A model generated the notes under the pieces. It was not told where the DNA came from, made no database searches, and saw only the letters and a program-made list of their open reading frames with translations. Positions 6,578 through 10,374 of a stretch of DNA of 10,884 nt are shown one piece after another. The position numbers and the translations under genes were made by a program. The DNA is from Candidatus Aenigmatarchaeota archaeon (GTDB lineage: Archaea; Aenigmatarchaeota; Aenigmatarchaeia; QMZP01): the NCBI GenBank assembly GCA_043824495.1, contig JBDRSV010000022.1:1-10884 (forward strand), in the 5' to 3' direction. Position 1 is the stretch's first letter; the number at the start of each line of letters is the position of its first letter.

Positions 6578-7186
6578 TTAACCAAAGCTTTTACCGCATC
6601 CACATGAAGCAGAAGCATTTGGATTGTTGAATTTGAATCCTGATTGTTGAAGAGTTTCTACATAATCTACTTCAATTCCTTTTAGAAGTTCCATACTCTC
6701 TGGACTTACAAACAATCTAAGACCATGAGCTTCAATTACTATGTCATTATCTGCAGGTTCTTTCTCGAAATCCATGTCATATGTGTTTCCTGCACATCCT
6801 CCTGCAAGAACACCTAGTCTGATACCATATTCTTCTTTACCTTGTTCTTTTAGAAGAACTTTAAGTTTTTCTGCTGCTTTTGCTGTTAACGTAACGTCTT
6901 CGCCTGGTTCATGCTTATGATCTGTTTTAGAATCTTGGTTTTTGAATTTCTCTCTTTCGGCAGTTATGGCTTTGTTTATGTCGTTTACAATGTTGTCTAT
7001 AACCTTATCGTCAAGACCGTGTCCACGAGCACCTGCTTCTATACTTTCGTATGGATTAACATGGCACCCAACGCAATGCAGTCCATATTCTAACATAATC
7101 TCTGATGATTTAGGAAAGGTTTGTATAACCTCACCTATAGTCATAGACTTTGTTACTACTAGTATCTCTGCCTCTTGTTGGGTCAT
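6578..7186 (-). CDS. DUF1858 (CxxC) domain fused to HesB/IscA A-type Fe-S carrier
   Basis: Residues about 9-74 (VTKSMTIGEV...IMLEYGLHCVGCH...ESIEAGARGHG) fit DUF1858. Residues 98-202 (VTLTAKAAEKL...GGCAG...NPNASASCGCGKSF) are HesB/IscA with all three Cys. SD GGTGA at 7191-7195. Confidence 0.88.
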   Translation of the reverse strand: MTQQEAEILVVTKSMTIGEVIQTFPKSSEIMLEYGLHCVGCHVNPYESIEAGARGHGLDDKVIDNIVNDINKAITAEREKFKNQDSKTDHKHEPGEDVTLTAKAAEKLKVLLKEQGKEEYGIRLGVLAGGCAGNTYDMDFEKEPADNDIVIEAHGLRLFVSPESMELLKGIEVDYVETLQQSGFKFNNPNASASCGCGKSFG

Positions 7187-7201
7187 AAAATCACCATAAC
7201 T

Positions 7202-7450
7202 TTAAACTATTTTTTCGCCTGTTTCGACATTTGTTACGTGTATAACGTTTACAGGGCAACCTTCCGCAGCTGCTTTCATGTTTTCTAGATCAGCTTCTTC
7301 GATTTCTACGACGAACATACCGTTTTTCTTTCCGTCCTTTAAATCAGCTTTTCCGTCAGCGTTCATTTCCCAGTATTTTTCGTCAACTGCTGCGCAAACG
7401 CCTGCACCAATGCAACCGTCTCTGTCGTATTCTACTTTAAATTTAGCCAT
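7202..7450 (-). CDS. Single-cluster ferredoxin, probably [3Fe-4S] type
   Basis: VEYDRDGCIGAGVCAA...AAEGCPVNVI gives C-x2-A-x2-C...CP with only three Cys. SD AAGGTGA at 7457-7463. Confidence 0.92.
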   Translation of the reverse strand: MAKFKVEYDRDGCIGAGVCAAVDEKYWEMNADGKADLKDGKKNGMFVVEIEEADLENMKAAAEGCPVNVIHVTNVETGEKIV

Positions 7451-7487
7451 ATAATATCACCTTATTTTTCTTTATTATATGTCACGA

Positions 7488-7509
7488 ATCCTTTTAAGTA
7501 TTAAAGGAT
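7488..7509. promoter_or_regulatory. Inverted repeat ATCCTTT-N8-AAAGGAT in the tes-ferredoxin spacer, overlapping a TATA-like TTAAAAG
   Basis: Read directly from the sequence. Could be an operator, an RNA hairpin after the tes stop, or chance. Confidence 0.35.
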
Positions 7510-7511
7510 AC

Positions 7512-9455
7512 TTAGCATCCGTCTCCTGGGCTACAACCAGCTCCGCCTGCTGGGTGCTTCATTGTTGCTTTTTTAATTGCACCGCCTCCGGCTTTACCTG
7601 CCCCTGCTATTACACTATCAAGAGATACGAAGTTTTGTGGTTGTGCAACTTCTTGTATTATACCAGGTTCGTCTCCCCAGTCAGGTGTAGGTTTTACTTT
7701 GACCAAAGATCTTCTGTTCTTGTTGTAGTTATCAACAATTACTTTGATCTCTTCTTCTGATAGTTTTCTGTGATGCTTATCTGCGTTTAATGATTTTCCT
7801 GTTTTTTTCTCCCACTCTTCTGCAGGAATACTGTACTTTCTTTGTATCTTATCTCTGTACATCTCAGGAATCACATTAAATGTGCAGAACGGCAAAACCT
7901 TTCCGTCAGGTGTTGCGTAATGTATATCACACTTGTGTATTCTGTCTATATCCCAGTTGTAAGGATCTTGGAAATGCATCATTCCAATGAACAAAGAGTT
8001 GTGATGCAAATCAGCTAAACCGTGGTAATTGCCTCCTTGCAGTGCTCCAGCAAGCATTCTTACAAACTTAAGATCCTTTGGCTTTTCATCGTTATTTACG
8101 TATTTCCTTATGTTTAACATAAGGTTAGCCATAACTTTTGCTTTTGTGAGATTCTTGAATCTTGCGGAATTCATCTCCTTTGTTAGTTCACCGATGTAGT
8201 TGAAGAATCCTTCAATGTCAAAGAACCTTGGTAATGGAACCATCTTATCTCCGTCTTTGAAGATATATGTAGCCATTCCACAAGCAAAGTGAATTGATAA
8301 TCTGTATTTTGGTTCTTCTTTAACAGCTTCTATAAAGTCTGTTATTTGCTTTGCGCATGGTACTGGGAACCAGTCATTCTTTGTTATTTGTCCATTTGTT
8401 TGTTCCTCAATTCTCTTGATAGCTCCTGGTATTGTTATTCTCTGTTCTCTTCGAAGCTTTTCAGGCATTCTACCTACAAGAGAAACTGGTTGGAAATTTA
8501 CAGATCTTACTACTCCCATGTTGCTGAAACCAAATCTAATTATGTCTCCCAACTCGTGATCGTTTATTCCTCCAATTACAGTTGGAACAAGCACGATTCC
8601 TATATCTGCTTTTTTACAGTTTCCTATAGCTTGTTGTGCTTCCCAATAGTTTTTAGGATTTGTTTGTGGAGTTACGCCATCGAAACTCATGTACAATACA
8701 TGAGAACCTGCTGCTTTGAGGTCGTTACATAGTTGTTGGCTTCTTGCAAGATTTACACCATTTGTGTTTAGTTGTACGTGATCGTATCCGATTTCTCTTG
8801 CTACTTTCACTATTTCTACGATGTCGTCTCTAAGAGTTGGTTCACCACCTGTTAATTGAACTGCGTTTGCGCCAACAGGTTTTTCATTTCTCATCCTCTT
8901 TAACATGAACTTTATTTGATCTATTGTTGGTTCGTATATTGGCTCTCCTTCTTTTGCGTAGAAGAAACAATACCAACAAGTTAAATCGCATCTGTTTGTT
9001 ACTACGATGTTACCCAATCCCGTGTGAGATTCATGTTCTACACATAGACCACAATCTGAAGGACAGTCTATTTCGAACTGGCTCTTATCGATATTTGGGT
9101 TTAGAATCTTAATGCCTGGATCTTGGAATTTTTCTGCTTTCTGGTATATTTCCCAATCGCCCCAGTATAATTCTTTTATTACGCCGTGATCAGGGCATTG
9201 TTTAATCATCCAAACTTTGTCGTCTTTGACATAGGTGACACAATCAATTTTTAGTTTATCGTGTTTTTCTTCGTCCACACAACCAGGACAAAGACTCTCG
9301 TGGAATTTCAGCATTTTAACATCTTTCATTCCTTCTAACAGTTTAACTAAAGCCTGCTTTCTCTCATCTGTGTAATTTTTCACATATGGAGACACAGGTA
9401 CATTCTTGTAATCAATAAGATCACTTGTAGTGGCTTGCGCGTATGTATTACCCAT
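7512..9455 (-). CDS. tes: Tetraether lipid synthase Tes (GDGT-MAS, MJ0619-family radical SAM enzyme)
   Basis: SLCPGC...KQCPDHG (rubredoxin-like site), CPSDCGLC (N-terminal auxiliary cluster), TNRCDLTCWYCF (radical SAM CxxxCxxC), QLTGGEPT, VNFQPVSLVGR, RITIP, HFACG, MHF.D.YN.D, CDIHYATPDG..LPFC..N, KYSIP.EEW all follow the MJ0619 family order as I recall it. Start set at ATG 9455 because GGAGGTGA (9461-9468) lies 5 nt upstream; the track's GTG 9464 is inside that SD. Confidence 0.9.
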   Translation of the reverse strand: MGNTYAQATTSDLIDYKNVPVSPYVKNYTDERKQALVKLLEGMKDVKMLKFHESLCPGCVDEEKHDKLKIDCVTYVKDDKVWMIKQCPDHGVIKELYWGDWEIYQKAEKFQDPGIKILNPNIDKSQFEIDCPSDCGLCVEHESHTGLGNIVVTNRCDLTCWYCFFYAKEGEPIYEPTIDQIKFMLKRMRNEKPVGANAVQLTGGEPTLRDDIVEIVKVAREIGYDHVQLNTNGVNLARSQQLCNDLKAAGSHVLYMSFDGVTPQTNPKNYWEAQQAIGNCKKADIGIVLVPTVIGGINDHELGDIIRFGFSNMGVVRSVNFQPVSLVGRMPEKLRREQRITIPGAIKRIEEQTNGQITKNDWFPVPCAKQITDFIEAVKEEPKYRLSIHFACGMATYIFKDGDKMVPLPRFFDIEGFFNYIGELTKEMNSARFKNLTKAKVMANLMLNIRKYVNNDEKPKDLKFVRMLAGALQGGNYHGLADLHHNSLFIGMMHFQDPYNWDIDRIHKCDIHYATPDGKVLPFCTFNVIPEMYRDKIQRKYSIPAEEWEKKTGKSLNADKHHRKLSEEEIKVIVDNYNKNRRSLVKVKPTPDWGDEPGIIQEVAQPQNFVSLDSVIAGAGKAGGGAIKKATMKHPAGGAGCSPGDGC

Positions 9456-9475
9456 TCTTGTCACCTCCAGACGAC

Positions 9476-9499
9476 AACTTTTAATACTTTTTAAAAGTT
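9476..9499. promoter_or_regulatory. Perfect 9-bp inverted repeat AACTTTTAA-N6-TTAAAAGTT overlapping the likely tes TATA box
   Basis: Read directly from the sequence. The minus strand reads TTTTAAAA about 20 nt before the tes SD. Confidence 0.45.
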
Positions 9500-9648
9500 C
9501 TAATAGTCAATTCGCTTCCATTATTTAAATACTTATCTGTTATGAACTATAGTGTTTCCATGGTACCGGTTACGATAATATCACGGTGTTATATTACGTC
9601 ATGTGTCATACGAATCATTTAAATTCTTGCTAGCTCTAATCTTACATT

Positions 9649-10374
9649 ATGTACAAACTGCCTGTCACAAAAATAGAAGAATACAAAGAGGGGGACAAAG
9701 TCACATTCAAGATAATTACTCTTTCTAATAAAAAAAATGAATTCTCTTTCCAAACAGGACAATTTGTAATGATATCAATGGAAGACTACAAAAGATGGGA
9801 CAAACCAAAAGAACAATATTGGACAGCAATGTCTATAGCTAGCAGTCATCTAGACAAAGATCATGTTGAATTCTGCATGGAGATAAAAGAAACTGAGGGA
9901 TTCTCAAAACATCTAGGAGATAGTCTAAAAGTTGGAGATCATCTTTTTCTAAAAGAACCAATGGGAAAATTCACAATAAAAGATATGAAGAAAGATATGA
10001 TTTTTGTGGGAACTGGTTCTGGTGTAGCTCCTGTTATGGGAATGATAAGAACTTTAGTGAAGAGTGGATACAAGAAAAACTTCAAATTATTTTTTGGCTT
10101 CAGATACTGTGGAGATTGTTTGTATGGTGAAGAATTAGAAAAATATGCAAAAGAATTACCAAATTTTGAATTCGTTTCTGTGTGTAGTAGAGACGATACA
10201 TGGAAAGGGGCACGAGGACATATACAAGAGCATATGGAGTCATGCGATTTCAAATCCCCAGATGATACTCATGTATACATGTGTGGAAATCCAAAAATGG
10301 TAATGTCAGTTAAAGAAATTCTTCAGAAAAAAGGATTCAAGAAAGAAAATTTATTCCAAGAACAGTGGGCTTAA
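9649..10374 (+). CDS. Ferredoxin-NAD(P)+ reductase-like FAD/NAD(P)-binding oxidoreductase
   Basis: FSFQTGQFV, SIASS, GFSKHL, VGDHLFLKEPMGKF, FVGTGSGVAPVMGMI, SR, YMCGNPKMV and terminal EQWA give FNR-family architecture without a fused 2Fe-2S domain. TATA-like TTTAAATT at 9618-9625. Confidence 0.9.
   Translation: MYKLPVTKIEEYKEGDKVTFKIITLSNKKNEFSFQTGQFVMISMEDYKRWDKPKEQYWTAMSIASSHLDKDHVEFCMEIKETEGFSKHLGDSLKVGDHLFLKEPMGKFTIKDMKKDMIFVGTGSGVAPVMGMIRTLVKSGYKKNFKLFFGFRYCGDCLYGEELEKYAKELPNFEFVSVCSRDDTWKGARGHIQEHMESCDFKSPDDTHVYMCGNPKMVMSVKEILQKKGFKKENLFQEQWA

Follow-up and report, generated by a model that had tools for sequence, protein, structure and literature searches.

How the radical S-adenosylmethionine (SAM) enzyme that joins archaeal lipids into membrane-spanning forms obtains its electrons and keeps its iron-sulfur (Fe-S) clusters intact is the question raised by a locus of Candidatus Aenigmatarchaeota archaeon (assembly GCA_043824495.1). 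In this locus, the gene for tetraether synthase (Tes), a member of the GDGT-MAS family that makes glycerol dialkyl glycerol tetraethers (GDGTs), is followed by genes for a small ferredoxin and for a protein in which a DUF1858 domain is fused to an A-type Fe-S carrier (DUF1858-HesB). The window analyzed here, 10,884 nucleotides (nt) in length, is the whole 10.9-kb contig C22 (JBDRSV010000022.1) of a 1.01-Mb metagenome-assembled genome (MAG) of this DPANN lineage, the assembly being 80% complete. A preliminary description of the window had read these three genes, together with a divergent gene for an FNR-like flavoprotein, as a dedicated system that passes electrons from NAD(P)H through the flavoprotein and the ferredoxin to Tes and loads or repairs its clusters. 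The comparisons presented here favor a narrower reading, to which a probability of approximately 0.6 was assigned: the three genes would form a conserved functional neighborhood of one Aenigmatarchaeota-specific Tes clade, with the ferredoxin supplying electrons and DUF1858-HesB loading or repairing clusters. The preliminary description as a whole is partly supported, and the genomic context points to a lineage-specific neighborhood for electron supply and Fe-S maturation of Tes.

The arrangement of the genes was confirmed as originally described. The genes tes, ferredoxin, and DUF1858-HesB form a row on the minus strand with gaps of 61 and 15 nt, each preceded by a GGTGA-type ribosome-binding site, and the FNR-like gene on the plus strand diverges from tes over 193 nt. 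The family assignments were likewise upheld by Pfam, NCBIfam, and PDB searches. Tes matched the model NF045702 with 686 bits (cut-off 450) and, over residues 54-550, the solved M. jannaschii enzyme (PDB 7TOL) with an E value of 2e-127. In 55 aligned sequences, placed against the ligand motifs of 7TOL according to a published ligand scheme (PMC13459092), all cluster sites were invariant: the radical SAM motif CxxxCxxC (C156/C160/C163), the rubredoxin-like site of three cysteines and a histidine (C56/C59/C87/H90), the N-terminal auxiliary site of three cysteines and a histidine (C131/C135/C138 with H141/H144), and the C-terminal auxiliary site of three cysteines and a methionine (C392/C509/C524 with M492/M493). 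At the level of sequence, the window protein was shown to belong genuinely to the GDGT-MAS type of radical SAM enzymes; it has a rubredoxin-like iron site in addition to three predicted [4Fe-4S] sites.

Two forms of Tes were found among 40 related genomes: a long form of approximately 620-690 amino acids (aa) that is 60-77% identical to the window protein, and a short form of approximately 540 aa that is approximately 50% identical to it. The long form carries an N-terminal extension of approximately 45 aa and a C-terminal extension, which in the window protein spans residues ~551-647 and ends in ...TMKHPAGGAGCSPGDGC. An AlphaFold2 model of this protein had a mean predicted local distance difference test score (pLDDT) of 84.5, and residues 602-647 of the tail were predicted to be disordered. 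In a tree constructed from the cores of 103 Tes sequences only, the long form was recovered as one clade with 99% support, separate from the short-form clade of Aenigmatarchaeota. Both forms occur within one GTDB family of this phylum, and none of the 41 genomes searched (G000-G040) holds both, a pattern that suggests either the displacement of one tes by another or an ancient paralogy followed by differential loss. Some long-form Tes contain inteins (L086:6204-9494; P0005, P0006; 1097-1153 aa), which fits the NCBIfam exception model for intein-containing Tes.

Since Zeng et al. suspected that DPANN Tes hits derive from hosts (PMC8941075), binning contamination was considered as a source of the gene, and it was rejected. 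Wherever a phylum was named, the long-form clade occurred only in MAGs labelled Aenigmatarchaeota (once Nanoarchaeota). Its contigs reach 600 kb and 555 kb, with a GC content of 35-40% like that of the window, and the presence of the clade on such large Aenigmatarchaeota contigs indicates that at least these DPANN tes genes are genuine. The window's genome also encodes UbiA-family and geranylgeranyl reductase (GGR)-family proteins, the latter from three genes. One GGR-family gene adjoins a UbiA-family prenyltransferase gene (G000 C21:8084-9904), so that at least part of an ether-lipid pathway is present in this DPANN genome. At 80% completeness, the assembly yielded no geranylgeranylglyceryl phosphate synthase (PcrB), from which no conclusion is drawn.

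The neighborhoods of tes were compared between 28 long-form loci and approximately 82 short-form loci from Nitrososphaerales, Bathyarchaeia, Methanobacteriota, Thermoproteota, and Aenigmatarchaeota. A Fer4_15-type ferredoxin gene and/or a DUF1858(-HesB) gene directly follows tes on the same strand in every long-form locus with downstream DNA, and ferredoxin orthologues occupy this position in most of them. Four gene orders were observed (fd, ferredoxin; D, DUF1858; DH, DUF1858-HesB; double colon, fusion): tes-fd-DH, tes-D-fd, tes-DH, and tes::D-fd. The adjacency persists over at least two GTDB families, and DUF1858-HesB, DUF1858 alone, or a Tes::DUF1858 fusion was present in approximately 19 of the 28 loci. 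Such partners were found in none of the approximately 82 short-form loci. Ferredoxins overlooked through a type-specific hidden Markov model were ruled out as the cause by a generic motif scan, in which small CxxCxxCxxxCP open reading frames lay within 3 kb of tes in just four of the 82. Hence, the recurrence of the partners proposed in the preliminary description held for the ferredoxin and DUF1858(-HesB) genes within the long-form clade; it did not hold for the FNR-like gene or for Tes across Archaea.

The wider flanks of the long-form loci share a theme of low-potential electron supply and Fe-S assembly around Tes, often with another ferredoxin-dependent lipid enzyme. Subunits of 2-oxoacid:ferredoxin oxidoreductase (POR) flank eight loci and lie directly upstream of tes in L083, sufS-nifU flanks four, and a Mrp/ApbC-type ATPase gene flanks three. 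GGR genes occur in the flanks of four loci, in three of which a 2x[4Fe-4S] ferredoxin gene lies beside GGR. For example, a single strand of L172 carries genes for a SufS-like and a NifU-like protein, tes::DUF1858, fd, porA, porB, a 2x[4Fe-4S] ferredoxin, and GGR. The thioredoxin reductase gene trxB (TIGR01292, 355 bits) lies 3-7 kb upstream in two loci with fused Tes. In the same-genus genome G001, trxB (L037:8354-9310) precedes tes by 77 nt in the same orientation, within the row trxB-tes-fd-DUF1858-fd-sufS-nifU-sufS.

Tes and DUF1858 are naturally fused in four diverged proteins. In L082, both are encoded in one open reading frame of 735 aa, and a database search with the junction region returned three further fusions (735, 746, and 662 aa), one of them on a 340-kb contig; in the DUF1858 portion, these share 54-93% identity with L082. 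The fused proteins branch at the base of the long-form clade and retain its N-terminal extension. Their DUF1858 domain occupies the place where other long-form Tes have a DWGxE...PTMxHPAGG segment followed by a Cys/Gly-rich tail. A chance adjacency of the ferredoxin and hesB genes to tes was rejected because of these fusions and the recurrence described above. The link between the tail and DUF1858 is suggestive only, as the Tes of L083 has neither the Cys-rich tail nor any DUF1858, and the tail is present in L078 and L081 with no DUF1858 nearby. The tail was also rejected as a trait exclusive to the long form, given that Nitrososphaerales Tes ends in GHxxGCGC and has no DUF1858 nearby. The Nitrososphaerales proteins (L106, L119, L125, and others) end in a conserved RRGGHxxGCGCxxGE...PIQPITGT and those of Bathyarchaeia in GCGCPLGA..., so that cysteine-bearing C-termini are widespread on Tes; no description of them was found in open-access full-text literature.

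The DUF1858-HesB protein of the window consists of a DUF1858 domain (residues ~10-77; PF08984/TIGR03980, 53.1 bits, cut-off 32.2) with the invariant pattern HCxGCH...E...HG, and an A-type carrier domain (residues ~98-201; TIGR00049, 122.8 bits, cut-off 58.8; PF01521, 80.5 bits, cut-off 26.3). Its structural matches in the PDB were IscA/SufA and nuclear magnetic resonance structures of DUF1858. The carrier cysteines C131, C195, and C197 are invariant across 65 homologues. In a DUF1858 profile built from HesB-fused, Tes-fused, Tes-adjacent, and nrdG-adjacent members together, residues C38, C41, G35, G40, E50, G52, H56, and G57 are invariant and H37 nearly so. This profile weakly matched ScdA, a protein of Fe-S repair, in its N-terminal domain (PDB 9R7J, E value of 5e-4).

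Outside the long-form clade, the same parts are found in other settings. More than 300 homologues of DUF1858-HesB occur across DPANN. In Woesearchaeota (L153-L156), the gene is the last of sufC-sufB-short sufD-sufS-sufU operons without tes, and the protein is the DPANN form of SufA. On a Diapherotrites contig, it is followed by a gene for a Mrp-type ATPase. In short-form Aenigmatarchaeota, nrdD-nrdG is followed by a standalone DUF1858 gene and a 2x[4Fe-4S] ferredoxin gene in at least six of the eight loci inspected (L158-L165, from relatives G017, G023, G021, G016, G005, G010, G012, and G003), such that NrdG, the activase of the anaerobic ribonucleotide reductase (RNR), is a second radical SAM enzyme trailed by DUF1858 and a ferredoxin. 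A search of the 41 genomes detected the HesB domain in seven of the 11 with long-form Tes, in one 58%-complete genome without detected Tes, and in none with short-form Tes only; it is missing from the long-form subgroup at 60-66% identity. The long-form genomes mostly encode class I/II RNR and lack NrdD. HesB as a simple marker of oxygen tolerance proved insufficient, as family f2, with class I/II RNR, has short-form Tes and neither HesB nor DUF1858.

This distribution bears on the main rival explanation, a housekeeping island in which DUF1858-HesB is the SUF A-type carrier, the ferredoxin is a general electron carrier, and tes lies within or beside the sole region for Fe-S biogenesis in a genome of 1 Mb, no specific partnership being involved. 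The many DPANN homologues and the tes-free suf operons of Woesearchaeota agree with such an island, as do the single HesB/DUF1858 gene of the assembly (hence one A-type carrier), its two Fer4_15-type ferredoxins, the presence of sufCB 5 kb away on the same contig, and the sufS-nifU, Mrp, and trxB genes in the flanks of relatives. However, a mere island would not lead one to expect four natural Tes-DUF1858 fusions, an adjacency kept through several gene orders and at least two GTDB families, or short-form genomes of the same family in which DUF1858 resides at nrdDG and not at tes. On this balance, the island was considered unlikely as the explanation, although its elements do count against calling the helpers a dedicated system, as had been proposed: with one A-type carrier, two like ferredoxins, the fusion placed in suf operons, and DUF1858 and a ferredoxin following nrdDG, that term is too strong.

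The invariant CxxC of DUF1858 also allows the domain to be viewed as a small redoxin that is fed by thioredoxin reductase or by ferredoxin and keeps the Cys-rich tail or the ligand cysteines of Tes reduced, in which case HesB and the ferredoxin would belong to a separate process. Thioredoxin serves the C-terminal cysteine tail of RNR in a comparable manner, and a ferredoxin-dependent disulfide reductant serves the class III RNR of Methanosarcina barkeri, as in some archaea. The NCBIfam label of DUF1858 is 'redox disulfide domain', the Cys/Gly tail of Tes is predicted to be flexible, trxB is found upstream of tes in G001 and two fusion loci, and nrdDG is trailed by DUF1858 and a ferredoxin. In contrast, the invariant His, Glu, and His around the CxxC resemble a metal or cluster site more than a dithiol site, and more than 300 proteins combine DUF1858 with an Fe-S carrier. 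Thiol reductants are also far too weak for a radical SAM cluster, and the GCGC tail of Nitrososphaerales Tes exists with no DUF1858 in its vicinity. A thiol-disulfide relay was accordingly judged very unlikely.

The ferredoxin beside tes contains the motif CIGAGVC...CP, in which the second cysteine of CxxCxxC is missing. Its closest solved structure is that of the Pyrococcus furiosus ferredoxin, with alanine at the position of Asp14, and orthologous ferredoxins have A, S, or V at this position. Alanine at the second ligand position makes a [3Fe-4S] reading reasonable, and the protein is predicted, from its ligand motif, to be either of the [3Fe-4S] type or of a [4Fe-4S] type with an open iron site. 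Two ferredoxins are present in the crown-group long-form loci, a CxxCxxC type upstream and a CxxA/S/VxxC type downstream of tes. The window's genome encodes five radical SAM genes and two ferredoxins of the Fer4_15 type; no small 2x[4Fe-4S] ferredoxin was found in it.

A ferredoxin next to tes could alternatively be the partner of GGR, its adjacency to tes resulting only from the clustering of lipid genes. The association has been noted once, in M. acetivorans MA_1484-MA_1485-MA_1486, where the ferredoxin MA_1485 lies next to tes (MA_1486) and is needed by the GGR MA_1484 (Isobe et al., 2014, as noted by Zeng et al., 2022, PMC8941075), and this GGR context is the only one in which ferredoxin comes up in a 2026 review of lipid radical SAM enzymes. 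That locus resembles the window in having a small ferredoxin by tes in a cluster that modifies lipid tails, and it offers a case of a pathway-specific ferredoxin for an archaeal lipid enzyme. Furthermore, GGR flanks four long-form loci and is represented by three genes in the window's genome. The resemblance is limited in several respects. The M. acetivorans ferredoxin was shown to act for GGR and not for Tes, whereas the ferredoxin beside tes in the window is of the single-cluster Fer4_15 type and is accompanied by DUF1858(-HesB), which has not been described for the M. acetivorans cluster. In L067, L086, and L172, GGR has its own adjacent 2x[4Fe-4S] ferredoxin and the Fer4_15 type stays by tes. 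No GGR is encoded within the window, and the tes-GGR pairs of Bathyarchaeia lack any ferredoxin. The reading of this ferredoxin as the partner of GGR was regarded as very unlikely.

The identity of the enzyme that reduces this ferredoxin is a point on which the preliminary description required revision. The FNR-like protein matched PF00175 (80 bits) and PF00970 (33.6 bits) and possesses the NAD(P)-binding motifs GTGSGVAP (GxGxxP) and CGNPKM as well as an aromatic C-terminus (EQW). Its flavin motif deviates from the expected RxYS(T), with TAMSIAS in place of RxYSIAS and thus Thr for Arg and Met for Tyr. A 46%-identical relative shares T(A/S)MSIAS; among other DPANN homologues, a Tyr/Phe-Ser motif was found in seven, six of which also have the Arg. 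In the window protein and its 46-62%-identical relatives, T(A/S)MS is directly preceded by an insertion of 10 residues. Judged from these residues, flavin binding may be altered. No FNR gene was found beside tes in the 27 other long-form loci. Homologues are present in 13 of the 40 relatives, where they are located elsewhere among unrelated neighbors, and three of those genomes have no detected Tes. The protein is a candidate ferredoxin reductase of an atypical subtype and not a conserved member of the neighborhood, and the recurrent reducer near long-form tes is POR.

A pairing of this FNR subtype with a ferredoxin is found elsewhere. In L174, the closest homologue (62% identity) is followed after 236 nt by a 3Fe-type (CxxSxxC) ferredoxin that is 51% identical to that of the window, and another DPANN contig carries a DUF1858-FNR-Fer4_15 trio in a row. 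These two contigs make the subtype and the 3Fe-type ferredoxin a plausible redox couple. A metagenome scan with the FNR-like protein returned two weak loci only. POR was found in 38 of the 41 genomes and was not found in the window's 80%-complete assembly; a firm claim that POR had been replaced by FNR was withdrawn because of this incompleteness and because the same-genus genome G001 has POR. Cupredoxin-domain proteins were observed beside long-form tes (L069:7181-7861, GW2011_AR5) and near the FNR-ferredoxin pair (L174:3119-3913), together with peroxiredoxin genes, which hints at a lineage living with oxygen exposure.

The complete chain originally proposed, from NAD(P)H through the FNR-like protein and the 3Fe-type ferredoxin to the radical SAM cluster of Tes, can be evaluated for the organism of the window. 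The divergent adjacency of the FNR-like gene and tes, the L174 pair, the DPANN trio, and the failure to find POR in the window's assembly are in line with such a chain, and radical SAM enzymes in E. coli are activated by NADPH:flavodoxin/ferredoxin reductase systems. However, the adjacency is restricted to one of the 28 long-form loci, the missing POR may reflect an assembly lacking a fifth of the genome, the TAMS motif replaces the FAD-binding (flavin adenine dinucleotide) RxYS motif, and passing electrons from NAD(P)H to a radical SAM cluster by way of a 3Fe ferredoxin runs thermodynamically uphill. The full chain was considered somewhat unlikely. The single step in which the FNR-like protein reduces the ferredoxin in the window's genome is possible but doubtful, and is the weakest link of the scheme.

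From the identity of the enzyme, its gene association within the clade, the fusions, and the families of its partners, all of which were demonstrated by the comparisons above, we infer the following roles. To form one C-C bond, Tes must cleave SAM reductively twice; a sulfide of the C-terminal auxiliary cluster ([Fe4S4]C) hosts the first lipid radical, and a lipid-sulfur species was recovered under SAM limitation (PMC13459092). The small ferredoxin would be the proximal electron donor for these cleavages, and would probably also feed other ferredoxin users such as GGR. In most relatives, it would itself be reduced by the POR encoded nearby, and in the window's genome possibly by the FNR-like protein. 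DUF1858-HesB would insert or repair clusters of Tes, most likely the C-terminal auxiliary cluster that forms the C-S bond with the lipid in turnover. DUF1858 would be the part that contacts Tes, as is suggested by its fusion in basal members of the clade; where it is separate, most Tes instead have a Cys/Gly-rich tail that is predicted to be flexible. The helpers would be general Fe-S and electron-carrier parts of the cell that have been placed beside a demanding client, and not a private system. The heterologous synthesis of GDGTs in E. coli was achieved with an extra Fe-S maturation plasmid and anaerobiosis (PMC12042123). The genomic context, comprising POR, sufS-nifU, Mrp, trxB, and the match between DUF1858 and ScdA, fits electron supply and cluster loading or repair, as do the fusions; this portion of the original proposal is retained.

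A more specific version would make DUF1858 an adaptor that docks onto radical SAM enzymes and serves in their repair. It would bind Tes through the fusion or the Cys/Gly-rich tail and, with the fused A-type carrier and electrons derived from the ferredoxin, rebuild [4Fe-4S]C once it has been damaged by oxidation or left with an abortive lipid-sulfur adduct; the adaptor and a ferredoxin would likewise service the NrdG activase of anaerobic relatives. This version was rated as quite unlikely. A complex prediction for Tes and DUF1858-HesB, with a separate alignment for each protein, scored 0.20 against a mark of 0.32, a value that counts neither for nor against an interaction.

Several observations weigh against the view of the three genes as a functional neighborhood of long-form Tes. 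The partners are general or single-copy in the window's genome, sufCB lies on the same contig, and the fusion ends suf operons elsewhere, so that much of the pattern might reflect proximity to a general Fe-S island. The association has a single origin in one clade, and the many loci are for this reason not independent events. Exceptions exist within the clade: L073 and L077 have no adjacent ferredoxin, L078, L081, and L083 have no nearby DUF1858, and the deeper-branching loci have the CxxCxxC ferredoxin only. The reducing power of a 3Fe-type ferredoxin may fall short of what a radical SAM cluster needs. The isolated position of the FNR-like gene and its atypical flavin motif count in the same direction. 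Finally, the spacer between tes and the ferredoxin gene contains a hairpin and an AT-rich box, which renders their co-transcription only putative. The hairpin directly follows the tes stop codon, with a folding energy of -16 kcal/mol (z of -3.0; 0 of 200 shuffles as stable), and together with the box it may function in processing, in attenuation, or as an internal promoter.

Comparable support systems are already known, in which a radical SAM enzyme has a ferredoxin or flavodoxin as donor, or an Fe-S carrier services an auxiliary cluster; what is new here is a Tes version restricted to one clade and the DUF1858 element. In agreement with the preliminary description, no physiological reductant or maturation partner of Tes was found in open-access full text, nor was a description of the Tes-DUF1858 fusion or of the long-form clade. 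In the M. acetivorans-like arrangement of L172, the GGR-side ferredoxin is of the 2x[4Fe-4S] type. McCarthy and Booker reportedly observed in 2017 that the Fe-S carriers NfuA and IscU regenerate the sacrificial auxiliary cluster of lipoyl synthase (LipA). Like Tes, LipA is a radical SAM enzyme whose catalysis draws on the sulfur of an auxiliary [4Fe-4S] cluster, and servicing by an Fe-S carrier would be common to both. Unlike in LipA, the C-S adduct of Tes is proposed to be resolved with the cluster intact, so that only abortive turnover or oxidation would call for repair. The carrier here also differs in being an A-type protein fused to DUF1858 and encoded beside its putative client, to which DUF1858 is in some cases itself fused.

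The electron-transfer half has counterparts in E. coli, where Fpr and flavodoxin activate radical SAM enzymes, and in actinobacteria, where FdR and a [3Fe-4S] Fdx serve P450s. In these chains, as proposed for the window, an FNR-family flavoprotein and a small carrier deliver single electrons to a metalloenzyme, and the pairing of FNR with a 3Fe-type ferredoxin recurs in DPANN. The FNR of the window, by contrast, does not accompany tes in other loci and departs from the usual FAD motif, and the reducer neighboring tes in relatives is POR. The maturation half resembles isc and suf operons (iscA...fdx, or with sufA last) in that an A-type carrier with three cysteines is encoded next to a ferredoxin, the Woesearchaeota fusion even occupying the position of sufA. 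In long-form Aenigmatarchaeota, the carrier gene lies outside a suf operon and after a client gene, and the protein has the N-terminal DUF1858 that is missing in SufA, IscA, and ErpA. Similarly, the di-iron repair proteins RIC/ScdA/YtfE are linked to Fe-S repair and have an N-terminal domain detectable, if weakly, as a relative of DUF1858. Their hemerythrin-like di-iron domain is absent here, and DUF1858 occurs either by itself or in fusion with HesB or Tes.

The features of the window are listed below. The start of tes was placed at the ATG at 9455, with GGAGGTGA just before it; the list of open reading frames gives the start of the same frame as the GTG at 9464. In the divergent intergenic region, the boxes TTTAAATA/ATTTAAAT lie approximately 25 nt ahead of the ATG of the FNR-like gene, and an AT-rich palindrome lies ahead of tes; these are putative promoter elements. 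Besides sufC and sufB, the contig encodes an HTH (helix-turn-helix) regulator, nrdR, a class I/II-type RNR, a GNAT acetyltransferase, a deoxyribosyltransferase-like gene, and csaA. Between sufCB and the tes module (2486-6575) lie nrdR, the RNR, which has an ATP cone, the acetyltransferase gene, and the deoxyribosyltransferase-like gene, a weak match to nucleoside deoxyribosyltransferases. RNR genes also form the divergent flank of tes in L074 and L076.

Table 1. Positions of the tes neighborhood and of the suf genes within the window.
Feature	Position	Strand	Detail	Basis
sufB, partial (off contig end)	3..872	-		tblastn, 64% identity to Woesearchaeota suf-operon SufB
sufC (SUF/SMS-type Fe-S assembly ATPase)	856..1614	-		tblastn, 51% identity to Woesearchaeota suf-operon SufC
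DUF1858 fused to A-type Fe-S carrier (HesB/IscA/SufA)	6578..7186	-	202 aa	Pfam and NCBIfam
Single-cluster ferredoxin (Fer4_15/Fer4_13)	7202..7450	-	82 aa; GGTGA 7 nt upstream	Pfam
tes-fd spacer	7451..7511	-	hairpin, AT-rich TATA-like box, GGTGA Shine-Dalgarno	fold and sequence
tes, tetraether synthase (GDGT-MAS family), long-form clade	7512..9455	-	647 aa	NF045702, PDB 7TOL, alignment, AlphaFold2, tree
Divergent intergenic region, tes/FNR-like	9456..9648	.		sequence and inverted repeats
FNR-like flavoprotein (FAD_binding_6 and NAD_binding_1)	9649..10374	+	241 aa	Pfam, alignment

Lipids made by Tes/GDGT-MAS underlie both the stress tolerance of archaea and the TEX86 palaeothermometer. The long-form clade provides the first concrete candidates for helpers of Tes, namely the ferredoxin, POR and perhaps FNR as likely enzymes for its reduction, and the DUF1858-HesB carrier. 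These candidates can be tested directly with the E. coli platforms for GDGT production and the in vitro assays that already exist. A genuine DPANN Tes also bears on whether archaea with small genomes remodel their own lipids. Additionally, DUF1858, a widespread domain of unknown function, gains a reproducible setting beside radical SAM enzymes and Fe-S carriers. If the adaptor reading were true, it would assign a function to DUF1858 and a physiological system of maturation and activation to Tes.

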